In this document: piece after piece, positions 29,401 to 61,804 of the stretch
Layout: the number at the start of each line of letters is the position of its first letter
How positions within the stretch are numbered: the first letter of the stretch is position 1
Source of the DNA: a virus
Taxonomy: Duplodnaviria > Caudoviricetes
Length of the DNA stretch: 64,000 nt
IMG/VR virus record: IMGVR_UViG_3300032225_000329
Coordinates: 342-64,341 of that record
Reading direction: 5' to 3' (one strand)
Program-made: the position numbers and the translations under genes
The notes under the pieces: model-generated
Databases searched by the model: none
Seen by the model: only the letters and a program-made list of their open reading frames with translations
What the model was told of the DNA's origin: nothing

Positions 29401-32400
29401 CCATAGGCAATGACGCGCCCGGCGTCAGCCAATTGTTTTTGCCAACGCTTTATAGGGGCACGGTCATTAGCAAATTTCTTTTCAAGCCATGCGCCAGTTT
29501 TACTAGAAAGTACAGCGTCCCATATTTTTGAAGGGGCAGCAGGCTGTTTACCCGTTTTCATTTCTGACTCTAGTTCTTCTAAAGAACGGTCAGTGGTAGG
29601 CGCTGCCTTTGGCTTTCTGGCAGGTAAAGCTTCAATATCTATGCCAGCTTCAGGTGCAGCAAGTATCCCTTGGAACGCTTGAGTCACTTCAAGCAGCGCG
29701 TTGCCTTGGAAGCCAGCTTGTTTAGTTAAGCCAATCTTAGATTGTTTGTAAACGTCAGCGGCGGTTTTATCTACTTCTTCGGCAAATTTTTTATCATTAA
29801 GATATTTTGCTACAAAGTCTGCAACACCTTGGTCAGACGTATCGCTAAACGCTTCAGGATAATTTTCTTCTAGACGAGGCGCAACAGAATCACGTAAACC
29901 ATCAACTGATTCAAAAGTTAATATCGTGCCATTACTTAAGTCTGTTGTCTTTCCTTCTTTAGCTACATAATTATTAACTTCTCGTTGAACAGTCTTATCT
30001 ATTGTTAGTTTCTGTTTAGTGTATTTTTCACCACCAAACGCTTTAGCTACGTCGTCGTATAAATCAGACTTAATTTCAAAGAACCTAGTCGCCGCTTTAG
30101 TAAGTCCATACAACTTCATTAGCACTTTGGTTAAGTGCGCCCAGATACTTTGCAGTCCGGCAGTAGGGGTACTTGGCGCTAACGTATATTTAGCAAGCGA
30201 CGGCGCTTGTATGCGGGAGAGTTCTTCTTGGAAACGTGGGTCGGTCAACGCATAGCTAACAAACTCATATACGTTCTCCATCTGGTTAGGATATTTTTTC
30301 TCTAACCTTGTTTTAGCAAACTCGTATACTTTATTAATCTGTTCGGCAGCGGCACGCTGTTCTTTTGTTAAGCTGCTTGGGTTAGTTTTAAACGCGTAAA
30401 GAATCTTAATCGTACCGGCGTGTACTATCTCATGCAGGACGGTCATCTCGTCCATGCCATCTTTAGTGAAATAGAACGTATCTGTCTTTGGGTCGTAGGC
30501 CGCTAACTTACCTTCTTTTTGTAGCTGCTGGATTACTTTATTGTTTGGGTCAACAACAACTTTGGAACTAGAAAAATTAATGGTGTTAAGCACCATTGCT
30601 ATGTTTTTAAATACAGCGCGTGACAACGCACCGTAGCGTTTTTCGTAGTTGCGTATTGATTCAGAGCGTGGAGAATCTTTCTTGCCAATTCTTATACCGC
30701 CAGCTTTCTTAGCAATATACGCAAGTACGTTATTGATGCCGCCTTCACCTAGCATCATCTTAACTAATGCGGGCAGTTCTTTGCCTACTTCAACTTCTTC
30801 TTTGGCAGCAGCTTCCTCTTCTTTGGCAACGCGCTGCGCTTTGCCCTTTTCTTCTTTGGGTGCGCGCGATTCCTTCTCGGCGTTATGAATCCAGACGTCA
30901 GTAAACGCCTCATCCATTTGTTCGGTAGTTACTTCGCGCTTAGTTAAATCGCCTTTTTTATTGCGGGTAAAGCCACGCTCAATAGACTTTAAAAATACGT
31001 TGCGCGCGCTATCATCTAAGTCACCCCAACGTGGTAATTCAGAAGAGTAAGCTTGACGATTAAGTTCGTAGATAGACGCGCCTTGTGGTACCCCGCCTTC
31101 TTCTACTCCGCCTTCTTCGGTTACTTGCTCATTAGATTTTAAATAAGATTGCAAAGCTGAATAAGCTTTATCTTGTTCTTCTGCCGTATTGTTTTTAATT
31201 TGCGATAGATATATATCGCGTTCATCATCGTTAAGGTCTTCCCATCCACGTAGTCTGCCGGGGCGGTTTTCGTTGTACGAGTTAACAATCGCTTTATTTT
31301 TCTTAAGCAACGCAATAGCAGGAGATACTTGTGGTGCAGCTCCTTTAGACGGTAACATGCCTTTAGTCTTTAACGCGTCTTTTATTTCGCTCATTAACGC
31401 TTTTTTCAAATCAGGCGTTAACTCTTCCCACGCGGGTAATTCATCGCCATGCTTTTCCAGTAAAAGCGTATAGCCATCTTTAATCTGTTTAGGAGTTAAT
31501 CCTTTTTCTTTAGGCGCTTCTGTTTGCGCGCGCGCCAATTCTGCCTTAAGAGCTTCATGTGCTAATTCAGCTTCTTTTGCTAAACGCTCTTCTTCTGCTA
31601 AACGGTTTTGTTCTTCAGTTAGTGCAGCTGGCTGTGCTGCTTCTGCCACATTATTTGCTGGAGCATTCCCTCCAGCACCGCCCACTCCAGATACGATAGA
31701 TGTGTCAACTCCGGGGGTGGTTCCTTCCACTGTTGGTGCAACGCCAGCAACGCTAGGCTGATTTGCTGGGGTGTTAATTCCTGTAGATGGCTGCTCGACA
31801 TTGCTTTTCTCCTTTAGCTCTGCGAGTTTATTTTCAATATTCTCTTTGTATTTTCCGGTTACTTTTTTGCCGCCCGCTGTTTTACCTGTTGCTAACTCAG
31901 ATTCATAACGCGCTATTTGTTCTTCAGGCGTTTCGTCTTTTTTCTTAGCAATAGGTTCTGTATACGTAGGCGTAGGAGCAGTTTGATCTGTAACACTTGC
32001 TGTTACATCTTTATCTTTAGCGGCAGCGGCGGCTTCAGCGGCGGCGGCTTCATTGGGTGGCAGTACATCAAATTTAATTGACTGAGGAGGGGTTACATTT
32101 CCTTGCTCATCAGGCACGCCAACAGTAGTTATACCTTCCGCAGCAGCTTGCGCTTGTTGCGTAGCGTCAGCAGTTTTTTGCTCTTCATTTTGTATATCTT
32201 GACGGAATTGATTTTCTAATTCTTTATTGCGCTCTTCTACGCCAGCCATACCACGGGTTTTAATTGCGCCACCAGCGGATGGCACGATTGACATAGCATA
32301 AGCAGCGGCTGCGCTATCAACGTATTCTTTAATTGCTTCGGCGTCTGTTAAAGAAAGCTTTGCGCCAAAGCGTTCGGCGGCGCTTTGAATCATTTCAACA

Positions 32401-33332
32401 GGCGCTTCTTTAGTACCTGTCTCTACTAAGTTTTTACCAAAGTTTAATAAGAGATTCTTTTGGTTGAGGTCAAGCTTATTAAACGCGCCCAGACCAATCT
32501 TATCGCCGACAAACTCAGCAACACCATGCACAAGGGCTGAAGGCAATACACGTTCGAGCTCAATGTCAGTAGCTTCTTTGCCCAAGCGTTGGGCTTCTTC
32601 AACAGCACGGGATGTAGTTTCACCAGCGCCGTGGAATCCGGCTTGAGCAGCAAGCGCAGCATGGCTTGCCATATCTTTAGCTACTTCTTTAGCAGCGGCT
32701 TTAGTGCGTTCTTCAACATACTCTTTAGCCGCTTTTTCACCCTGCTCTTTAGCTATTTTTTTAGCGGTTTCTTCAACAAGTTCTTTAGCTAACTTCTTCT
32801 CTACAAGTCCCAACGCTCCGCCAGCAACCGTACCAGCACCCGGTATTACAGAGCCAGCTAATGCACCAGCACCCATAACAGCAACAGACTCAAGAAGATT
32901 AGCCGCACCAGAACCTACTTGGTAAGGTATCCATTCGGTCAATACAGTGCCAATACCTTTATCAAGCGCAGTAGTAAATGAATCAGTAGACTTAGATTTG
33001 CCGCGCAATTCTTTTTTAGCGGCCTCCATAGTTTCAATACCAGACTTCATTAAGTCTTCGGAACCAAAAACTTTACCCGCTAATACTTTTGCTGCGCCAT
33101 AAGTTTCTTTAGTTTGTGGCAAGTAGGAAGTAAAACCACGAACAAAGTTACTAGAATCTTCTTCTACTTTTGGTTCAGGTGTTTCTTCTTTACCACCAAA
33201 TTTTTTAGCTAACGCGCTTATATCATCTTCGCTAGACTGCCCGCCAAATTTCTTAGCAAGTTCGTCTAAGTTATTTTTAGGAGGGGCGGATTCAGCCCCG
33301 CCAAATTTTTTGGCAAGCGCATCATAATCCAT
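26403..33332 (-). CDS. Large ejection-type polyvalent protein with zincin (HEXXH) and LPD38-like domain
   Basis: 2309 aa; MTVLHEIVHAG; C-terminal IQIPWGFG...LPSIVRPFIEYAMNVDALGRQIY typical of LPD38; last gene of the virion operon. Confidence 0.75.
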   Translation of the reverse strand: MDYDALAKKFGGAESAPPKNNLDELAKKFGGQSSEDDISALAKKFGGKEETPEPKVEEDSSNFVRGFTSYLPQTKETYGAAKVLAGKVFGSEDLMKSGIETMEAAKKELRGKSKSTDSFTTALDKGIGTVLTEWIPYQVGSGAANLLESVAVMGAGALAGSVIPGAGTVAGGALGLVEKKLAKELVEETAKKIAKEQGEKAAKEYVEERTKAAAKEVAKDMASHAALAAQAGFHGAGETTSRAVEEAQRLGKEATDIELERVLPSALVHGVAEFVGDKIGLGAFNKLDLNQKNLLLNFGKNLVETGTKEAPVEMIQSAAERFGAKLSLTDAEAIKEYVDSAAAAYAMSIVPSAGGAIKTRGMAGVEERNKELENQFRQDIQNEEQKTADATQQAQAAAEGITTVGVPDEQGNVTPPQSIKFDVLPPNEAAAAEAAAAAKDKDVTASVTDQTAPTPTYTEPIAKKKDETPEEQIARYESELATGKTAGGKKVTGKYKENIENKLAELKEKSNVEQPSTGINTPANQPSVAGVAPTVEGTTPGVDTSIVSGVGGAGGNAPANNVAEAAQPAALTEEQNRLAEEERLAKEAELAHEALKAELARAQTEAPKEKGLTPKQIKDGYTLLLEKHGDELPAWEELTPDLKKALMSEIKDALKTKGMLPSKGAAPQVSPAIALLKKNKAIVNSYNENRPGRLRGWEDLNDDERDIYLSQIKNNTAEEQDKAYSALQSYLKSNEQVTEEGGVEEGGVPQGASIYELNRQAYSSELPRWGDLDDSARNVFLKSIERGFTRNKKGDLTKREVTTEQMDEAFTDVWIHNAEKESRAPKEEKGKAQRVAKEEEAAAKEEVEVGKELPALVKMMLGEGGINNVLAYIAKKAGGIRIGKKDSPRSESIRNYEKRYGALSRAVFKNIAMVLNTINFSSSKVVVDPNNKVIQQLQKEGKLAAYDPKTDTFYFTKDGMDEMTVLHEIVHAGTIKILYAFKTNPSSLTKEQRAAAEQINKVYEFAKTRLEKKYPNQMENVYEFVSYALTDPRFQEELSRIQAPSLAKYTLAPSTPTAGLQSIWAHLTKVLMKLYGLTKAATRFFEIKSDLYDDVAKAFGGEKYTKQKLTIDKTVQREVNNYVAKEGKTTDLSNGTILTFESVDGLRDSVAPRLEENYPEAFSDTSDQGVADFVAKYLNDKKFAEEVDKTAADVYKQSKIGLTKQAGFQGNALLEVTQAFQGILAAPEAGIDIEALPARKPKAAPTTDRSLEELESEMKTGKQPAAPSKIWDAVLSSKTGAWLEKKFANDRAPIKRWQKQLADAGRVIAYGVGMNNIYDQIVLSSGNAHWIYTQYVQAGTEGLRQEIAAYADKNKLSVEEALQKLAMYSIARHLPERREVLYMREVKLSSSPIIKFTNAQGKTENISPSEMRDTIFKELDTNKNLTEAEIKYFNKTLRSIAFDKNQTFLDPDIKGKDLANINSSKYNVAGAFSEAEVKTMTDAYNKNKAEVQPIFDIVDKLNKTTLKLNKMSNYMSPYADNWIKFYGWENYVPLKGRHLSDETDMLNFDSRRLGGELQEKVHTFEGNQEIPDNPVLQVMADAALASMRVGRKNITETIYNSSKKSKDNPNGSGLLPTAEVVKIVNFEERRDQKFLDSLGGETKIFHYMPDGKVAVISIKDKNLLEAIRRSYREVNPFVEFLNKATGTIGQFHTRFNIAFAPINFARDVLTNAFSIGSDLGPLNTFNYLGSVAKSVVTGGLFKAVKFNYLYSRGEIGALTALASKDQYYKDLLDLTRTGGRVSYLAGIANKGQFNELNKEIGKSGIVPLKSVPKFFDSYIESFEMASRVSAFRIAKQTELAELKRQNKTGPEAEEAANIKAAAYTKELANFEQAGEYGKTMGALFMFFRPSATGAIRAIDAVAPAIMNAEQARMRQPQFAEATILREKLKDKSVTGATRAKLEAKLKDAEKAISNFDTKFAENKKNAQVMVIALMGVGYLAYQMAHAMADDDDNKDELGRNKIATDDMSRWTKFARFYIPGIERPIQIPWGFGLGAFAAMGAQMGAMFNGNVKPGETLANMVPIVLDSFLPLPVSRIPIGEKPLEYAIDSALPSIVRPFIEYAMNVDALGRQIYNNRQSRFGEAYTGGDNIPELYKNAARWWFETTGNDISPNSLYFFANSYADGASRIMHNGTNISLWLAGKKDFDPKTDTMFLDSFVGSKSNYDARQWQRIEDDLKEREQKINMLKNNKPDQYLAYLSKNPLDEMLADMYNHDVNGHLKDLREQANKYRAMDVLSPKERKEIVDAIVLQQNFEKYRLVQLYNAFGVKP

Positions 33333-35998
33333 TATTTAATCCCGGCAGCAGTTTTAAATTTTTGAGCAGCTTCAGCATTAGGGAAAGAATATGTTTTGCC
33401 ATCAGCAGTTGTTACGCTAGTACCGCCCCCAGTTGGACTCGCCGAAGGAGTAGTATCTAAACCTTTTGCACGACTGTAAGATTCTTTTAATGCTGCCTTA
33501 AGGTCTTCTTCTTGTTTCTTTAGACGATTATAGTCTCTTTCAACAGCTTTAAACCCTTCAGGCGCAAGCGCTTTCATACTCTCATAATTAGAAAGTTTTT
33601 TACCTTCTTCAGATTTAGCAAAGTTTTCTAATGCCGCTCTAGCTAGTTGCGTTTGTTTAGTATCAAGTTTCTCTTCGTTTAAATTACTGCCCTTACCAAT
33701 CCTAGCGGCTTCTAACGTAAGTTTTCTTTCTTGTTCACGTTCTTTAGCTTTAAGTTTAGTTTCAGCCGCGCCTACTTTACGTGTGTATTCTTTTTCTTCT
33801 AAACCACGATAGTCATCTGCTATTTGATTACGTATGTTCATAACAGAGTCAAACGCTTGTCTATGGTGTTCTCTAGCTTCTTTAACCATACCAGCGCTTT
33901 CTAAGTATGAAGAACGATCTAATTCATACAAAGATTTTCTAAGCTCATTCTGCATCTTCTTGCGTTTAGATTCATCCGCAATCGTGTCGTCAATATAACC
34001 GGTAAGTGCTTGCAAACCTACTTTAAGTATAGGCCCCGGAGTAGAACCAAAGACAGCCCATGCTTGCGCTTGGCGCATTCTAGATTCGTCCTTAGACTCA
34101 TTTGCACTAGCCTTTATTTGCTCCACAAAAGAATTACGTAGGGCTTCAGTATGTTTATCATCAATGCCAAGGTCTTTATTGGTTTGACGCATTTCGGCAA
34201 CGCGTGTCGCAATACTTTTATCTGCTTCAGCTTGGAGTGCTGGTAATGCTTTTTGCCGTTCAGCTAATTGTTTTTTAGTTTCACTAAACGCACCTTCCCC
34301 CGCCGCTTTTACAGCCTCATCGTACTCTGTGTACATGTCCTTAGATTTAGGCGCGGCGTCTACAGCTTTCTTTTTAGCTTTTTCTGTAGGGGTGCCTGAC
34401 TTCTTTTCTGCGCCTATGTCTTCTCTAATAGGGTAAGAATTATCTTTAAACGGATTATCTACTTCGTCAATTGCTTTTTTACTTCCTTCAGCAAACGCAA
34501 TCATCCCGCCGCCAGCCGCAGTCACAACCCCACTACGAGTATTAGCGCGGCGTTGAGCCTCCGCTTGCATGATGCCCATAGTTGCAGGGTCGGTTTGTTG
34601 GTTAGCAAGTTTCTGTTGTAGCTGTGGGTCAGAAAGCCTTTTAGCCATGCTTGGCAGCTGGTATGGGTTAACGCCAGACTCAATACCGCCAGTAATCTGA
34701 GGCACAGCACCGCCATCAGCCATCTTAATTACGCCACCATCTTTCTTACCCACCTGACCCATGTTGTACAACGCGCCAGCCGTACCGACTAGCTGTTGAA
34801 TGCCCATAGGCTGCGCCTGATACATACTAGTGTTACCAGCTTGCATAGGCAGACCACGCAGCATATTGGACATAATGCCAAGCTGCATATACGGATACTG
34901 TTGTTGTGTAGCGTAGTTCTGAATCTGCTGATTAATAATCGCTTGTTGCTGAGCCTGTTCTTTAGCACCCAAATCTGACATGGCTTGAATAGTGCCCATG
35001 TCTTGTGCGTATTGTTGTTGACCCATGTTGCCAAGCAGTTGAGCAGCTTGCAGTGTTTGACCGTAGCCTTGAAGACCTAGGTTTGCACCAAACTGACGTG
35101 ACGCTTCTTGAGCGTTCTGCGCTTGCAACTGAGCTTGTTGGTTCTGTATTGCAGCGTTGAGGTTAGCGCCTTGGTTAGCTTGTTGTGCTTGGAGATACGC
35201 AGCTTGCTCTGCGTTAAACTGTTGTTGTCCTGCACCGTATGCTTGTTGTAACCCTTGACCCTGAATATCGCCAAGTTGTGTAGCCAAGTTACGACGACGC
35301 TCAGCTTCCATAATAGCTTGACGCGAACCACCATAAGCACCTTGACCTACTGCTTGTGCTTGCAACTGGTTTCTTTGTATCTCACCTTGACGCATCGCTT
35401 CGCGTTGCTGGGTGTTAACTACGTTCTGCATGTACGGAGACATGTATGCTTGAGACACATACGGAGCGGTAAACGAATCTGTTCGCACTTGTTGTGGAGC
35501 GCCAAGTTGAAAACGCTCAGCGCGCAGTGGAGAATAAACACCACCAAGTGCGGACTTACCTGCTACGCTGCCAGCAATCTGACTAGCAGCATCGGTTTGT
35601 TGGGGCGCTACGTATTGGTTAATCCCTGAAGTCGCAGCTTGCTGACCAAAAGACTGCGGAGCCACAGCCGCTTGCGCTTGTTGTAAAGCGTTGTTTGTAT
35701 ATACTATGTTGCCTTGCGCGTCTTTAAGTGGGTTACCTTGCGCGTCTTTTGCATAGGTAGAACCATACGGCATATAAGCGTTAAAGCCTGTAGGTTGGAA
35801 ATTCTGTCCCGACCCTGTGCCTGTAAATATTTGTTTCTGCGTAGCGCCAAGCATTTGCTCAACATAAGGCTTAGCGTACTCAGGAATGTTGGTAGTGTAT
35901 GTTGTACCAGTAGACGTAGTCTGACCGCCGCCGCCACCGCCGGGATAGAGTCTATTATTACCGTTTATATAGCCGTTAAATTTATTGCGGATAATCAT
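33332..35998 (-). CDS. Putative internal virion/ejection protein
   Basis: 888 aa; GGGGGGQTTS..TNIPEYAKPY, Q/A-rich region, coiled-coil C-terminus; position between nozzle and polyvalent protein. Confidence 0.7.
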   Translation of the reverse strand: MIIRNKFNGYINGNNRLYPGGGGGGQTTSTGTTYTTNIPEYAKPYVEQMLGATQKQIFTGTGSGQNFQPTGFNAYMPYGSTYAKDAQGNPLKDAQGNIVYTNNALQQAQAAVAPQSFGQQAATSGINQYVAPQQTDAASQIAGSVAGKSALGGVYSPLRAERFQLGAPQQVRTDSFTAPYVSQAYMSPYMQNVVNTQQREAMRQGEIQRNQLQAQAVGQGAYGGSRQAIMEAERRRNLATQLGDIQGQGLQQAYGAGQQQFNAEQAAYLQAQQANQGANLNAAIQNQQAQLQAQNAQEASRQFGANLGLQGYGQTLQAAQLLGNMGQQQYAQDMGTIQAMSDLGAKEQAQQQAIINQQIQNYATQQQYPYMQLGIMSNMLRGLPMQAGNTSMYQAQPMGIQQLVGTAGALYNMGQVGKKDGGVIKMADGGAVPQITGGIESGVNPYQLPSMAKRLSDPQLQQKLANQQTDPATMGIMQAEAQRRANTRSGVVTAAGGGMIAFAEGSKKAIDEVDNPFKDNSYPIREDIGAEKKSGTPTEKAKKKAVDAAPKSKDMYTEYDEAVKAAGEGAFSETKKQLAERQKALPALQAEADKSIATRVAEMRQTNKDLGIDDKHTEALRNSFVEQIKASANESKDESRMRQAQAWAVFGSTPGPILKVGLQALTGYIDDTIADESKRKKMQNELRKSLYELDRSSYLESAGMVKEAREHHRQAFDSVMNIRNQIADDYRGLEEKEYTRKVGAAETKLKAKEREQERKLTLEAARIGKGSNLNEEKLDTKQTQLARAALENFAKSEEGKKLSNYESMKALAPEGFKAVERDYNRLKKQEEDLKAALKESYSRAKGLDTTPSASPTGGGTSVTTADGKTYSFPNAEAAQKFKTAAGIK

Positions 35999-36402
35999 AA
36001 TTTTTCCCTCATCACCTGATGGGTGTTGGTCATGCCCATTTTTTCATACATCTGGACTAGAGTTCCTTTAGCCCAACACTGTGCAGTAGTAGCGCCCATA
36101 GAGCGCATCCAATCTTTAGCTTCATTAAACACATGGGTTCGCACTACACCTTTGCCACCCATTAAATTCACATGTGCTACGCGTTCACGCGGGTAGTCAA
36201 TAATATCTACAGTCACCGCTCCGGTTATGCCTTCTTCCGGTTCATCCCACACTAACAAAAATGTACGCCCTGTGCGTACCGCATATTCAACCTGTTCTAT
36301 AGTTATTAGATCAGGGTCAAGGTCAATCGCTCTTTGCAGCATCGGCGCGGCGACAGGCCATATTTGTGGTAGTAAGTTAGCTGGTACTTGATATAGAGCC
36401 AT
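35995..36402 (-). CDS. GNAT-fold protein (P22 gp14/T7 gp13-like position)
   Basis: GITGAVTV..., VAHVNLMGGKG, LVQMYEKMGM; alternating beta/alpha GNAT pattern. Confidence 0.55.
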   Translation of the reverse strand: MALYQVPANLLPQIWPVAAPMLQRAIDLDPDLITIEQVEYAVRTGRTFLLVWDEPEEGITGAVTVDIIDYPRERVAHVNLMGGKGVVRTHVFNEAKDWMRSMGATTAQCWAKGTLVQMYEKMGMTNTHQVMREKL

Positions 36403-36404
36403 AG

Positions 36405-37970
36405 TTATGCAGGTAAATGTTTTTTGGCTTTAGAGTCAACAGCTACCTTGCCTTTACCTACAGACTTGCGACGACCTTTTTGAATACGTTCCATCATGGC
36501 GTAGAGTTGTCTTGCTCCTGCTTCGGTTGATCCATTTCCCAACTCTGATACGATACGTGCAGGCACCACGAACTCACCATCAGCAAGACGAGCGGGCTGC
36601 TTATTACCAATAACAGCAGGAATAGAATCAGATACACCATCGCCCGGCCCTTTCAATAAACGTCCACCAGCAGCGTAATCAGAATAGCCACCTAAACCGT
36701 GCATGATACCGCCATTTGCTGCTGTGTAAGTAAAATCTTGGGGTATATTAGTTTTAGGCATTTCCGCTATTTTTACGCCCGCGCGTTTAGCCGCCCCTTT
36801 AAGCATACTCATAGCTGATTCATCTGGTCTGCCAGTTTTTTGTTCTAGAGTGTAGTCAAAAATACCGGGACCTTTAACTTTAGCGCCAGCGTGTTCCATA
36901 AGAGCTTCACCTTGGGCTTTACGGTCAGCTTCTTCTTTAGCTAATTGTCTTCTATATGCTGATATTTGTTCTTCTGCGGTACCGCCTATAGAAAACTTTT
37001 GTTCCCCAGTATATGGGTCAGTAGGTACGTCGCCACCCATAGTCATCATGTTCTGAGATATAGGACGCTGTTGCATAGGGTTTGCATAGTCCAAGCGCGG
37101 TATATTAGCCATTGGGTACATCGAGTTATTACCTATGGCATTCATATTAGACATAGCTTCTACGGGGCCTACGTTACCACCCTCTGCATAAGTCTTTGAA
37201 TAAAAGTTAGGAGCCGCTGCGTATTGATTAACAGGTGGCACGTCATTACCCGCACGGAAATTTTCATTAGTCCAGCTAGGTTTATATTTGTCTTTAGGTT
37301 TACCGCCAGCATTATCATTACCCAAAATTCCCAGTTTTTGGGCACCATACAAACCACCTACAACATCTAATGGATTATCTTTAGCATATTTCATGGCTTT
37401 ATTAAAGCCGTCACCCAAAGAATCAATTTCTCCAAGTATTCCTTTAGAAGCTGTTTCAGTAGGTATTTGCGATGTTGCGGCTTCGTTAAGATAATTTGTT
37501 GGTTGAGTACCGGCTGCTCGTATTTTTGACGCAAGGTCTGCCCCGGTAGTAGGAGGCCCGGGAGGTGCAGCAGGAGCCGCAGCAGGAGCAGGAGCCGCAG
37601 CAGGAGGTCCACTAACTGAAGGAGAGTAAGGGTTAGGGAACGCGTTTTCTGGCAATATTGGTTCGGCGGCTTCTCCTACGGTTTTTGCCATGTTTGCCGC
37701 TTGTGTAGAAGCTTCTACGGTGGGGGCTGCGCCCTGCATAATCCCTTGCGCGCCGCCTAATGTTTCAGGAAGAATCCCCGTAGCTTCAGGAAGAATACCA
37801 AGAGCAGGAGCAACAGCAGGAATTGCAGCTTCAGCAAGAAGAGGGGCAGCAGCTGCGCCAGCCATAGTTGTAGTAGTGCCAGCAGCCGCGATAGCGGAAA
37901 GCGTCGCAGGATCGTTGTATAAACGAACGCCATCACGACTATAACCATTGAATTTATTTGGGATCATCAT
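36405..37970 (-). CDS. Putative internal virion/ejection protein
   Basis: 521 aa; DPATL..A-rich N-terminus, conserved C-terminal KGPGDGVSDSIPA...LADGEFVVPA..VSELGNGSTEAG. Confidence 0.7.
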   Translation of the reverse strand: MMIPNKFNGYSRDGVRLYNDPATLSAIAAAGTTTTMAGAAAAPLLAEAAIPAVAPALGILPEATGILPETLGGAQGIMQGAAPTVEASTQAANMAKTVGEAAEPILPENAFPNPYSPSVSGPPAAAPAPAAAPAAPPGPPTTGADLASKIRAAGTQPTNYLNEAATSQIPTETASKGILGEIDSLGDGFNKAMKYAKDNPLDVVGGLYGAQKLGILGNDNAGGKPKDKYKPSWTNENFRAGNDVPPVNQYAAAPNFYSKTYAEGGNVGPVEAMSNMNAIGNNSMYPMANIPRLDYANPMQQRPISQNMMTMGGDVPTDPYTGEQKFSIGGTAEEQISAYRRQLAKEEADRKAQGEALMEHAGAKVKGPGIFDYTLEQKTGRPDESAMSMLKGAAKRAGVKIAEMPKTNIPQDFTYTAANGGIMHGLGGYSDYAAGGRLLKGPGDGVSDSIPAVIGNKQPARLADGEFVVPARIVSELGNGSTEAGARQLYAMMERIQKGRRKSVGKGKVAVDSKAKKHLPA

Positions 37971-38356
37971 AAGTAATTACTCCTGTCGCACCGTAACAGT
38001 ATTTTACCGTCATTTGTGCTTAATTTGACAAACCCTAAACGCTCGCAAAACCGCAGTCCAACTTGATTATCAGCGTTTATTTGGGTTACCGCAAAACCAT
38101 ATTTATCTATTACACCGCCAAGGATGGCCCGAATATACGCCCGAATACACCCAATTGGCTTAACCCCGTATCCTACATGAATCTCGTTATCTTTTACTAA
38201 CACACCACCTATAACGCGCCCTGATTCGGTCAGGGGTATAACAGTCCAATCTTTTACTGCTTCTATATACTCAACCAGCCCGATTGTTAAGCGATGCTTT
38301 ACAGACTCATACACCATAATTAAGGCGCGATCTTGCGGCGTCACCCAACTCTCCAA
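37967..38356 (-). CDS. GNAT-fold protein
   Basis: RVIGGVLVKDNEIHVG and NADNQVGLRFCERLGF (GNAT motif B). Confidence 0.7.
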   Translation of the reverse strand: MESWVTPQDRALIMVYESVKHRLTIGLVEYIEAVKDWTVIPLTESGRVIGGVLVKDNEIHVGYGVKPIGCIRAYIRAILGGVIDKYGFAVTQINADNQVGLRFCERLGFVKLSTNDGKILLRCDRSNYL

Positions 38357-38676
38357 TTAGTACCATCAAAGAACACAGGCACTTTACTAGCCCCGCCGCC
38401 AGCAACAATTGTATTAAATGTAGTTACAGATGAGTTAGTAACGAACGCTCTAGCACCTGTACTAACAGCCGCCGCAGGGGGCAAATCAGCCACAAGATAA
38501 ACAGAACCTAGCGCGAACTGACCTACAAAGTTATCTAGCTGTGTAAAGTACAGACGTAGGATGTTATTAAGCTGGTCGTGGTACTGCCGCGCGTATATAG
38601 ACGGAGGAACAGGCAACGGTGGCGCTTTTGTCCTTGTAAGGGTGGCGGACTCTGTAGTAACGACATTAGTGGTCAT
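38341..38676 (-). CDS. Small virion protein downstream of the nozzle
   Basis: PPLPVPPSIYARQYHDQLNNILRLYFTQLD; positional. Confidence 0.6.
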   Translation of the reverse strand: MTTNVVTTESATLTRTKAPPLPVPPSIYARQYHDQLNNILRLYFTQLDNFVGQFALGSVYLVADLPPAAAVSTGARAFVTNSSVTTFNTIVAGGGASKVPVFFDGTNWRVG

Positions 38677-42536: not shown

Positions 42537-42857
42537 TTAGATTGACTGCGAAGTTAAAGCGTTTAAGTCTGTGCTAGGTATAGCCGCCGAGTAATCAATT
42601 GGCGTCGCCGGTGTTTCAGAAACAGGAGCAACAAACACATCATTTGCCGCATCGTATGTGTCGCCTATACCAGCGTATTTGCCACGGAAGTTACCGTTGT
42701 AGCTCGTTTGTTTCCATGTGCCGCCTAGTACGCGCTCACAGAACGCAGCACCAATGTATTCTTTTTCAGTGCCATGAGCATCTGAAGTGTCTTTGTTGTC
42801 CACCACGATTACACGCAGTACAACATTGTTGCTATCTAACTCAGCAAAGTGCGCCAT
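42537..42857 (-). CDS. Small tail-fibre-associated protein
   Basis: MAHFAELDSNNVVLRVIVV...WKQTSYNGNFRGKYAGIG, typically found next to Gly-rich fibres. Confidence 0.75.
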   Translation of the reverse strand: MAHFAELDSNNVVLRVIVVDNKDTSDAHGTEKEYIGAAFCERVLGGTWKQTSYNGNFRGKYAGIGDTYDAANDVFVAPVSETPATPIDYSAAIPSTDLNALTSQSI

Positions 42858-43465
42858 TACTCTTCTCCTAAATGAAGTCCTGTCAGACTCTCGTCCGAAC
42901 CAATGTAACCTTTAACAAAGGTGTTAAACGAAATGCTAATACGTGTTCCATCGCCCTGTTTGGTCTGCACCATGTGCGTCAGATGCGACGGGAAAATAAT
43001 TAAATCGCCAGTACCTGTTTCATACCACCAGCTTTCTGAGTTGTGCGGGTTGTACTCAGCGGCAGGTATTTTGATTCTTTCGTAGCCGTCTTTGTAAAAA
43101 TAAATCTTGTCTGTTTCTCTATTTGCCTGTGGGTAAAACACACCGGAGATAATGCTGTTGGGGTGAGCATGCTTGTGATGATATTGACCCGGATCAGTAA
43201 AGTTAGCCCACGACTGCGTAATGTATGGCGTTACATCAAACTTAGGTGCATACACCGACTTAAAGTAATCCAACATAGCGTCTTCAATAAACTCACGAAT
43301 ATCTGTCATCTCAACAGACTTCAGAATCTTTCGATTCTCGCTAGTGGTATTACCTTCGTTTGGGTAACGCACTTGTTCTTTGATAAACAGCAATTCTTCT
43401 TCGGTCAGATCACGATCCAACTTAGAAAAACCAACGGCTGTGGGGAATAAGTTATGTATGTTCAT
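42857..43465 (-). CDS. Putative 2OG-Fe(II) oxygenase (TIGR02466-like)
   Basis: SWAN..PGQYHHKHAHPNSIISGVFY, LIIFPSHLTHMV, RISISFN. Confidence 0.88.
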   Translation of the reverse strand: MNIHNLFPTAVGFSKLDRDLTEEELLFIKEQVRYPNEGNTTSENRKILKSVEMTDIREFIEDAMLDYFKSVYAPKFDVTPYITQSWANFTDPGQYHHKHAHPNSIISGVFYPQANRETDKIYFYKDGYERIKIPAAEYNPHNSESWWYETGTGDLIIFPSHLTHMVQTKQGDGTRISISFNTFVKGYIGSDESLTGLHLGEE

Positions 43466-59301: not shown

Positions 59302-59994
59302 TTATACGCCGGTTGGGTTGAGGTACTGGTGACCGCCTGTCATTACAGTTGTTACTGTAACTGGAGGGCCAGCGCTATATGTCGAAACCGCATACGGGGC
59401 GTTGAATTTGCAAATAAACTCGCAGAAATTACCCGAAGTATTAGCAGTTTCAGTCACTACGTCAACGATGCGAATAGGCAACGAAGCTGTAGTTGTACCA
59501 CCAGCGGCGCTATAAATAGCCACTTTTGAGTCGCCAGATAAAGTTGAGCCAGCGTTCTGAACGAGTTCAGCGTTGGAACCAACCATTGTTTGACCCAAGA
59601 AAGCTACTGTCAAACCGTTGCCGTCTTCGGTGTTACCCGCAGCCAGAACAGCTTTAAACAGAACGTCAGGATCATCAGCGACGTAAGCGTAAATATCAGT
59701 AGCCGAAACGCTTGCAGGCCAGTATTGGCTCCAAGTTTTTTGACTATTGGTTGGGTTTGTGTAAACGCAACCGAGGAAAATACCAACAGGTGTAGCTGTC
59801 GTTTCGCCAACGTCTTTCTCAACAGTACCAGCAGCTACAAGCTTAACTACGTCGCCGTAGAAAATGTTTGTGCCATAGCTATTAGTTACTTTGAGTAGAC
59901 GAGTCGAACCGGCAAACACCTGACCACCGATCAAATTGATCGGACGTAGCCCGTAAGGGGCAGCTACTGTCGGGAAGGGACTAGTCTGTGCCAT
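59302..59994 (-). CDS. Capsid-associated/decoration protein
   Basis: APYGLRPINLIGG, IFYGDVVKL, VADDPDVLF; directly upstream of the MCP. Confidence 0.65.
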   Translation of the reverse strand: MAQTSPFPTVAAPYGLRPINLIGGQVFAGSTRLLKVTNSYGTNIFYGDVVKLVAAGTVEKDVGETTATPVGIFLGCVYTNPTNSQKTWSQYWPASVSATDIYAYVADDPDVLFKAVLAAGNTEDGNGLTVAFLGQTMVGSNAELVQNAGSTLSGDSKVAIYSAAGGTTTASLPIRIVDVVTETANTSGNFCEFICKFNAPYAVSTYSAGPPVTVTTVMTGGHQYLNPTGV

Positions 59995-61414: not shown

Positions 61415-61804
61415 CTATGCTCGTGAAATACCGCGTGGGTCTTGAACAACCGCTTCGACAGAATCATCATTAATAAGACGGAATTCCCGCCCATGAATCT
61501 TCAAACGAGTGCCGCTGTTCGGGCGCGCGAGGACAAAATCCCCTTCTTTGCACCACGGACCGGTTTTAAACCTATCGCCTTTATAAGCGTCAGGGCCTAT
61601 TTTCACGACAAAAAAGACCGTGCTAAGAACTTCTTCGTAATGCATTGTTGAGCCAGCTTTCGCTAAGCCGCTGTCGTATGTGTCGTCAATTTCAGGTATG
61701 GCTACTAATATGTGGTAGCCCGAAGGTTCTGGCAGTTGTTTTGCCTTATCTTCTGCGTCCTGCGGAACTTCACCGCTTTCTGTAGCGATTACTATGTCAG
61801 TCAT
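61415..61804 (-). CDS. groES: GroES-like co-chaperonin
   Basis: PSGYHILVA, SGL, VVKIGP, CKEGDFVL, EFRLINDDSVEAVV. Confidence 0.82.
   Translation of the reverse strand: MTDIVIATESGEVPQDAEDKAKQLPEPSGYHILVAIPEIDDTYDSGLAKAGSTMHYEEVLSTVFFVVKIGPDAYKGDRFKTGPWCKEGDFVLARPNSGTRLKIHGREFRLINDDSVEAVVQDPRGISRA

Follow-up and report, generated by a model that had tools for sequence, protein, structure and literature searches.

In the phages T7, P22 and epsilon15, the operon of internal virion proteins (IVPs) is opened by IVP-A (T7 gp13), a non-structural, acetyltransferase-like gene whose slot may hold an unrelated small gene in some phages; T7 gp13 and P22 gp14 are assembly factors, and no catalysis is reported for them in that account (PMC4819975). 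The gp7 protein of P22 carries a 20-residue basic/aromatic leader ending in SYPE, which is removed by the host peptidase OpdA and exposes KGGKG; about 60% of the burst remains once the leader is deleted (PMC8402733). For T4, the same source recounts, citing Black and colleagues, that IpI-III and Alt bear a capsid-targeting sequence which suffices to load them and is removed once assembly is complete; ten N-terminal residues of IpIII are enough for loading (PMC8402733). In the Bruynoghevirus Pa223 (preprint), the hub gp59 and the needle gp58 are followed by three ejection proteins, gp56, gp54 and gp53, among which lies a small open reading frame (ORF), gp55; that preprint also cites an interaction in phage DEV, where the tunnel protein inserts its N-termini into those of the outer-membrane protein (gp72/gp73). 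The recruitment to the procapsid, the inactivation and the ordered release of podophage ejection proteins are poorly understood, and so is the role of IVP-A. Here we describe a 64,000-nt stretch of DNA (the window; positions 342 to 64,341 of IMG/VR record IMGVR_UViG_3300032225_000329), nearly the whole 64,341-bp virus record, in which two ejection proteins, termed A and B, begin with a common 18-residue peptide (the tag) and each follow a small GNAT-fold gene (GNAT-1 and GNAT-2, respectively).

The likeness between A and B is confined to residues 1-18, where the tag of A (MMIPNKFNGYSRDGVRLY) and the tag of B (MIIRNKFNGYINGNNRLY) share 11 of 18 residues (BLASTP, E = 0.002 for the single comparison). 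A six-frame scan of the window for the NKFNGY motif found exactly two sites, which are the N-termini of A and B. The GNAT-1 stop overlaps the A start by ATGA (37967-37970), as the GNAT-2 stop overlaps the B start (35995-35998), and a Shine-Dalgarno-like GGAG/GAGG precedes each of the two starts by 8-9 nt. The genes of A and B use different synonymous codons for 6 of the 11 identical residues, and on this ground we reject gene conversion between them or a recent duplication of the DNA. The tag lacks a hydrophobic core and Cys and is therefore not taken for a Sec, Tat or lipoprotein signal, and an RNA-level or translational-coupling cause of its conservation is rejected because synonymous sites vary freely. 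The initial annotation, made from the letters of the window, had placed four ORFs on the minus strand with two ATGA overlaps and had described a shared N-terminus of 11/18 residues on otherwise dissimilar proteins; all of this is borne out.

Related loci (cited by L numbers; about 180 in all) were gathered in three sets, 54 via protein A, 80 via a degenerate DNA pattern for I-x-NKFNGY, and 51 via the GNAT-1 family; the 80-locus set is motif-biased by construction, and the B genes of the 54-locus set and the A genes of the 51-locus set are unbiased. In these relatives the tag follows the consensus M-x-I-x-NKFNGY-x5-R-x-Y and always sits at the extreme N-terminus. In A no 20-residue block is more conserved than that of the tag, whose identity to the window protein is 0.84 versus 0.13-0.44 in mid-protein, and the tag block of B (0.72) is among the most conserved blocks of that protein. 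Each conserved tag position is encoded by two to five synonymous codons across relatives, a tally that covers motif-matching leaders only and shows codon variation rather than invariance. Because synonymous codons vary at conserved positions, selection acts on the tag peptide, as the initial annotation had proposed from its codon differences. The tag is a portable N-terminal module under strong purifying selection.

The tag was found on at least four body types and on one to three ejection proteins per phage. These are an A-type body, in which DP(A/V)T is followed by an Ala-rich region and a C-terminal domain ending in KHLPA; a shorter A-like form with a Gly-zipper segment; a B-type body, in which a Gly run precedes NIPEYAxPYVE; and a poly-Gly protein ending in GIASLMDD. 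Three loci (L105, L077 and L114) encode three consecutive tagged proteins, of which just one follows a GNAT. A flexible hinge, DP(A/V)T in A and Pro-Gly(n) in B, joins the tag to the body. Among leaderless homologues, those of B begin at the Gly run (MSGGGSS, MGKGGGGG) and those of A with the Ala-rich segment, so that the earlier proposal that a usual N-terminus follows RLY fits B, whereas leaderless A proteins begin Ala-rich rather than with DPxT.

To compare the tag with its surroundings, we clustered into families the small genes that immediately precede A- and B-type genes. Ahead of A stand S2 (the GNAT-1 family), S4 (102 aa) or a cupin; ahead of B stand S1 (the GNAT-2 family), S5 (phrog_21390) or S6, a Pfam-significant GNAT that matches PF00583 at 36-47 bits. 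Among 69 non-redundant tagged genes with a visible upstream region, the upstream gene is S2 in 25, S1 in 28 and S5 in 10, and it is absent in 6, where the needle-position gene alone lies upstream of the tagged protein; in 16 of the 69, then, the tagged gene either has no small ORF upstream or follows a gene that is not a GNAT. S2 was absent from the complete genomes of the L020 and L077 records despite their tagged proteins (a positive control was run), and the complete genome of the L033 record encodes a tagged B yet gave no S1, S2 or PF00583 match. Ahead of B, S1 is followed by the NKFNGY tag in ~12 distinct loci, by other leaders in ~11 and by a leaderless protein in 5. The other leaders are M-N-I-F-K-W-L-F-N-P-D-W-F-T-F, M-R-F-N-D-R-A-M-A-L-A-G-I-P-D-L-P...K-I-K-L-H and, in L027 only, MNLISTIKSLFNYLTLYM, so that by short name the B proteins preceded by S1 carry NKFNGY, FNPxWFTF, RFNDRAMALAGIPDLP, NYSRRALEAFGEP or no leader. 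A further B leader, M-N-Y-S-R-R-A-L-E-A-F-G-E-P...G-R-I-Y, occurs after S6 and, in more distant relatives, after an S1-family GNAT. Moreover, the leader types of A and B occur in every combination: tag/tag, tag/other, none/tag and none/other.

The sole tight association is that of S2 with the tag on A. S2 homologues down to ~45% identity are each followed by an A-type protein with a tag or a diverged tag, and S2 and the A tag diverge together (MLIGTKHSGY..., MFSRYRQKALGDARLM-DPAT...). The pair is adjacent with a 4-nt overlap, so that physical linkage accounts for the pattern no less well than function. Where S4 stands before a leaderless A, the block seems to have been swapped as a whole. Altogether, the tag assorts independently of the upstream small gene, and the B tag is interchangeable with three other leader types or none. 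The initial annotation had proposed a RiPP-like logic, in which a shared leader is recognised and cleaved and a cognate GNAT acylates the new N-terminus, and under which the leader would depend on and co-vary with its modifying enzyme; the 16 of 69 tagged genes without an upstream GNAT, the S1 genes before other or no leaders, the independent assortment of S1, S5 and S6, and the tag in a complete genome with no detectable GNAT all speak against it. The linkage of motif and GNAT that it had suggested looking for holds for S2 and the A tag in all cases, with adjacency as a confounder, and fails for the other families, which assort freely.

The replacement genes vary in kind. S4 and the cupin stand in for GNAT-1 ahead of leaderless A proteins. 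S5, of 148-169 aa, replaces the GNAT before B (L006, L014 and L033 among the loci) or adjoins it, as in L092:2444-3315, where S5 and a GNAT are both present before B; comparison of S5 with Pfam and the protein atlas yielded no explanation of this family.

AlphaFold2 models of the two small proteins, built on alignments from related loci (A1, n = 26; A2, n = 12), reached a predicted local distance difference test (pLDDT) score of 90.6 for GNAT-2 and 90.5 for GNAT-1. Foldseek against the PDB returned more than 100 matches at E<=0.001 for both; among the matches listed, all are acyl- or acetyltransferases and nearly all are GNATs, with template modelling (TM) scores of 0.56-0.72. The listed matches of GNAT-2 are all GNATs, with TM scores of 0.65-0.72, and N-terminal acetyltransferases (Ard1, NatE and RimI) are among the top matches of GNAT-1 by fold. 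The models thus show both small ORFs to be GNAT-fold proteins, in agreement with the initial annotation. In BFVD, a database of predicted viral structures, the best matches of GNAT-1 are uncharacterised phage proteins; it also matches entries named "Internal virion protein A", "DUF2824 family protein" and "Protein inside capsid A" with TM scores of 0.62-0.69, no higher than those of generic GNATs. The precedent of P22 gene 14 followed by gene 7, with the OpdA-removed 20-aa leader of gp7 (PMC8402733), that had been invoked for this locus is sound.

At the level of primary structure, neither small protein matched Pfam or NCBIfam, including the GNAT profiles (PF00583 and relatives), even at E up to 1. 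GNAT-1 had no match in PHROGs, and GNAT-2 had weak matches only (E 8e-4 to 9e-3, including phrog_1249, an acetyltransferase). None of the 365 clusters homologous to GNAT-1 has a Pfam domain, and two GNAT-1 homologues are labelled RimJ/RimL family by JGI. A regular-expression search for the acetyl-CoA pyrophosphate-binding motif A (Q/R-x-x-G-x-G/A) found it in 0 of 17 S2 members and in 1 of 30 S1 members, there at an unrelated position. GNAT-1 and GNAT-2 gave no sign of paralogy with each other (BLASTP, E = 1.6; hhalign probability 0.3%) and, judged by sequence, are two distinct families; the duplicated GNAT module of the initial annotation thus stands as a repeated architecture, not as a repeated sequence. 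P22 gp14, a DUF2824 protein, matches PF11039 at E = 6e-53, and neither GNAT-1 nor GNAT-2 matches that family; hhalign of S1 or S2 against gp14 gave probabilities below 1%. A phmmer search of gp14 against the PDB found a weak glyoxalase match only, and literature searches on gp14 function or DUF2824 returned nothing usable. The slot of GNAT-1, between the hub and needle genes and the first ejection protein, is conserved in relatives, and by this position GNAT-1 occupies the slot of the non-structural assembly factor IVP-A (T7 gp13, P22 gp14). The GNAT-2 family is a separate GNAT-fold family, which lies ahead of the second ejection protein in 28 surveyed loci. The GNAT-1 reading frame proposed earlier (37967-38356) exists, and its start is most likely the GTG at 38344, in a GTGA overlap with the upstream ORF, rather than the TTG at 38356, because the orthologues start there with ATG.

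Protein A is composed of the tag, the DPAT hinge, an Ala/Gly-rich hydrophobic region and a conserved C-terminal domain, which retains 70-90% identity in loci where the remainder of the protein differs. This C-terminal domain (GPGDGVSDSIPA...LADGEFVVPA...KHLPA) is common to A-like proteins of 250-1350 aa, including forms starting MSLHTLAxxLQxxGRGxDxxLVHMTPxEV, and in cultured phages its carriers are annotated variously as calcium-binding protein or tape measure protein. A tblastn search with A gave matches limited to the C-terminal domain and one with B gave none; neither protein matched Pfam, PHROGs or NCBIfam. From its position, B is likened to Pa223 gp54 and P22 gp20 and may have a corresponding role. 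The giant ejection protein that follows B contains an HExxH motif, kept with its (V/I)LHE context in nearly all orthologous giant proteins of related loci. No Pfam model matched the HExxH region, and just downstream of it the protein matches PDB 9sfn_G, an "internal virion protein", at E = 6e-6. This sequence pattern suggests a candidate packaged zincin-like metallopeptidase domain. The first 55 residues of the giant protein (~33170-33332) contain three tandem copies of (D/E)xLAKKFGG, and its orthologues have other short aromatic/acidic motifs, two or three times each, in the same place (APWERxW, PVDYDPFAK, NPFDQFD, KFVPxEE, FDPxTA); these repeats could be docking motifs.

Gene order and the annotation of relatives identify the region as the operon for the internal-virion (ejection) proteins of an uncultured podophage with a P22-/LUZ24-like tail, and the record is a complete phage genome because it carries direct terminal repeats. 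A late operon on the minus strand runs from ~64 kb down to 26 kb through the portal, capsid, tail and lysis genes into the ejection region, where the order is tail hub, 111-aa needle-position protein, GNAT-1, protein A, GNAT-2, protein B and the 2309-aa giant protein, with junctions of 4-nt or 1-nt overlaps or 2-nt gaps (Table 1). A DNA search of the region against cultured phages found no match. The hub belongs to a virion structural protein class (phrog_3287), and its tblastn matches lie in DSL-LC04, pelagiphage HTVC023P, roseophages CRP-901 and CRP-902 and Pseudomonas Bruynogheviruses, several of them annotated "stabilization protein", that is, the P22 gp10 or tail-hub class. The 111-aa protein may act as the needle, as its position suggests. 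A scaffold candidate lies at 59302-59994. Elsewhere in the late structural operon, a 2-oxoglutarate (2OG)-Fe(II) oxygenase (PF13759, phrog_81; 42857-43465, minus strand) is conceivable as a modifier of virion proteins, and the tail modules of DSL-LC04 and HTVC023P contain one to three 2OG-Fe(II) oxygenase genes each. A 129-aa ORF adjoining the portal gene (61415-61804, minus strand) weakly resembles GroES/Cpn10, with a Pfam match (E = 6e-4) that falls slightly short of the cut-off.

Table 1. Features of the ejection operon in the window, in order of transcription.
Feature	Position	Strand	Basis or remark
Tail hub ("stabilization protein", P22 gp10 / Pa223 gp59 position), 712 aa	38673..40811	-	phrog_3287, E 3e-65
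111-aa protein, tail-needle position (family S3)	38341..38676	-	Beside the hub in nearly all loci
GNAT-1 (family S2), IVP-A position, 125 aa from GTG	37967..38344	-	ORF extends to TTG at 38356
Protein A, first ejection protein (IVP-B / gp7 position), 521 aa	36405..37970	-	ORF, position, conservation
Tag of protein A, 18 residues	37917..37970	-	BLASTP of A against B; conservation
C-terminal domain of A, residues ~421-521, ends KHLPA	36408..36710	-	Conservation 0.6-0.76
GNAT-2 (family S1), between first and second ejection proteins, 135 aa	35995..36402	-	AlphaFold2, Foldseek
Protein B, second ejection protein (periplasmic-tunnel position), 888 aa	33332..35998	-	Position, conservation
Tag of protein B, 18 residues	35945..35998	-	BLASTP of A against B
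Pro-Gly6 hinge from tag to body of B	35924..35944	-	Leaderless B homologues start at the Gly run
Giant ejection protein, untagged (IVP-D / gp16 position), 2309 aa	26403..33332	-	Pfam LPD38 at residues 2005-2179
HEIVH (HExxH) in giant protein, residues 967-971, TVLHEIVHAG context	30420..30434	-	Recurs in orthologues

The reading that we favour, and to which we give about an even chance, is that the tag is a portable address tag and/or pro-sequence and that the GNATs are assembly factors of the IVP-A type rather than readers of the tag. The tag would direct or hold the channel-forming ejection proteins during procapsid loading and, by analogy with the P22 gp7 leader and the T4 capsid-targeting sequences, would probably be removed at the hinge, with two candidate proteases, an oligopeptidase of the host and the HExxH domain (residues ~900-1100) of the giant protein packaged alongside. 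The GNAT-fold proteins may meanwhile serve the operon as assembly factors, and each tag would act on its own protein and be open to exchange for another module or to loss. Several points weigh against this proposal. Loading, cleavage and the protease are all things that we infer; a search of the head-module ORFs against PHROGs, Pfam and NCBIfam found no prohead protease family; the lack of a GNAT in the L033 genome was established by sequence searches only, and S5 might yet have a GNAT fold; and S2 and the A tag co-occur in every case and diverge in step, leaving room for a functional link between them. In addition, the P22 gp7 leader is dispensable for incorporation, and it is residues 21-154 of gp7 that bind procapsids (PMC8402733), so the closest precedent argues against a simple loading role.

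That same dispensable, cleaved leader fits the proposal that the tag is purely a pro-sequence, a safety catch that keeps membrane-active or oligomerising proteins soluble and inactive in the producing cell and is removed on or after packaging, with no part in loading. The conserved body begins exactly where the hinge lies, leaderless homologues exist, and the co-packaged giant protein offers, in its conserved HExxH domain, a possible enzyme for the processing. We nevertheless regard a pure pro-sequence as unlikely, since a dispensable inhibitor is not expected to keep eight invariant residues while the bodies have diverged to ~20-40% identity, a pattern that points to a specific partner for the tag, and since its removal here is again something that we infer. 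Alternatively, the tag might work after ejection, as the N-terminal interaction of DEV gp72 and gp73, in the form cited by the Pa223 preprint, would allow; the same tag occurs on up to three channel components, and the A tag directly precedes a hydrophobic Ala/Gly-rich segment. The free assortment of A and B tag types, including a tag on one and none on the other, makes a required A-B pairing of tags unlikely, and B works without a leader in several lineages, so a post-ejection function also appears improbable.

A further possibility, in line with the initial annotation, is that the tag is a recognition leader that is bound by the adjacent GNAT and cleaved near RLY, whereupon the new N-terminus or a tag residue such as Lys6 is acylated or, in a weaker form, GNAT-1 acts as a non-catalytic escort. 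Every locus in which S2 was found continues with a tagged A-type protein whose tag diverges in step, the GNAT and ejection genes are translationally coupled, GNAT-1 resembles Ard1, NatE and RimI in fold and has two homologues labelled RimJ/RimL, and a canonical Pfam GNAT (S6, PF00583) takes the same slot in relatives. Gly-rich new N-termini also resemble the substrates of N-myristoyltransferase. We consider such a modification system distinctly unlikely: 16 of 69 tagged genes have no upstream GNAT, complete genomes with tagged proteins lack S2 or all of S1, S2 and PF00583 matches, and S1 precedes B with another leader or none as often as with the tag. Moreover, the Q/R-x-x-G-x-G/A motif is missing from S1 and S2, no GNAT hidden Markov model recognises either family, the association of S2 with the tag is inseparable from physical linkage, and T7 gp13 and P22 gp14 are known as assembly factors with catalysis unreported (PMC4819975). 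The narrow version, in which GNAT-1 acts on the A tag and IVP-A-type GNATs are leader-dependent enzymes or escorts that acylate the NKFNGY...RLY-DPAT N-terminus or a Gly/Ala-rich new N-terminus, seems very unlikely; if true, it would explain what the T7 gp13 / P22 gp14 class does biochemically and define the motif of its substrate.

IVP-A-type GNAT genes, a cleaved leader on the first ejection protein, and the order of a GNAT gene before the first ejection protein are already known. In the literature searched, we found no description of a conserved tag common to several ejection proteins, of interchangeable leader types on the second ejection protein, or of an additional GNAT-fold gene, belonging to another family, ahead of the second ejection protein. 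The clade supplies a short portable tag, natural swaps of it for three alternative leaders or for none, and natural combinations in which each GNAT family is either present or missing. If the tag is sufficient for loading, it would offer a handle for packaging foreign cargo into podophage capsids.

Compared to T7, the locus likewise opens its ejection operon with a small acetyltransferase-like gene in a replaceable slot (S2 with S4 or the cupin; S1 with S5 or S6), but T7 has one such gene and its gp14-gp16 have no shared leader, whereas here two GNAT-fold genes of different families are present. In Pa223 a homologous hub heads a matching series that runs from the needle through a small membrane protein, a small ORF and a tunnel protein to a large inner-membrane protein; the intervening Pa223 ORF is a 55-residue helix rather than a GNAT, and the preprint reports neither a shared leader nor cleavage. 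With T4 the locus has in common a short N-terminal peptide on otherwise unrelated internal or ejected proteins (here at least four body types), and it differs in that T4 is a myovirus with a dedicated prohead protease, gp21, of which no family was detected among the head-module ORFs here, and in that there is no sequence similarity.

The closest likeness in gene order is to P22, with the hub (gp10), the needle (gp26), a small GNAT-fold gene and a leader-bearing first ejection protein in succession. The B tag, ending in RLYP before a Gly run, mirrors the gp7 junction ...SYPE|KGGKG; as in gp7, the extension is ~20 residues long and ends at a Gly-rich junction, the very point at which leaderless B homologues start. 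Next to the most distant S2 homologues, the following gene is homologous to mature P22 gp7 (pairwise E = 7e-9 and 7e-6); one of these gp7 homologues has a diverged leader, ...RLM-DPAT (L220), and the other has no recognisable leader (L226). The components themselves differ, since GNAT-1 and GNAT-2 have no sequence match to gp14 and A has none to PF25688, and cleavage is known in P22, whereas removal of the leader is a prediction here. Unlike in P22, the leader is found on the second ejection protein as well, and in relatives on the third, and a second GNAT-fold gene precedes the second ejection protein.

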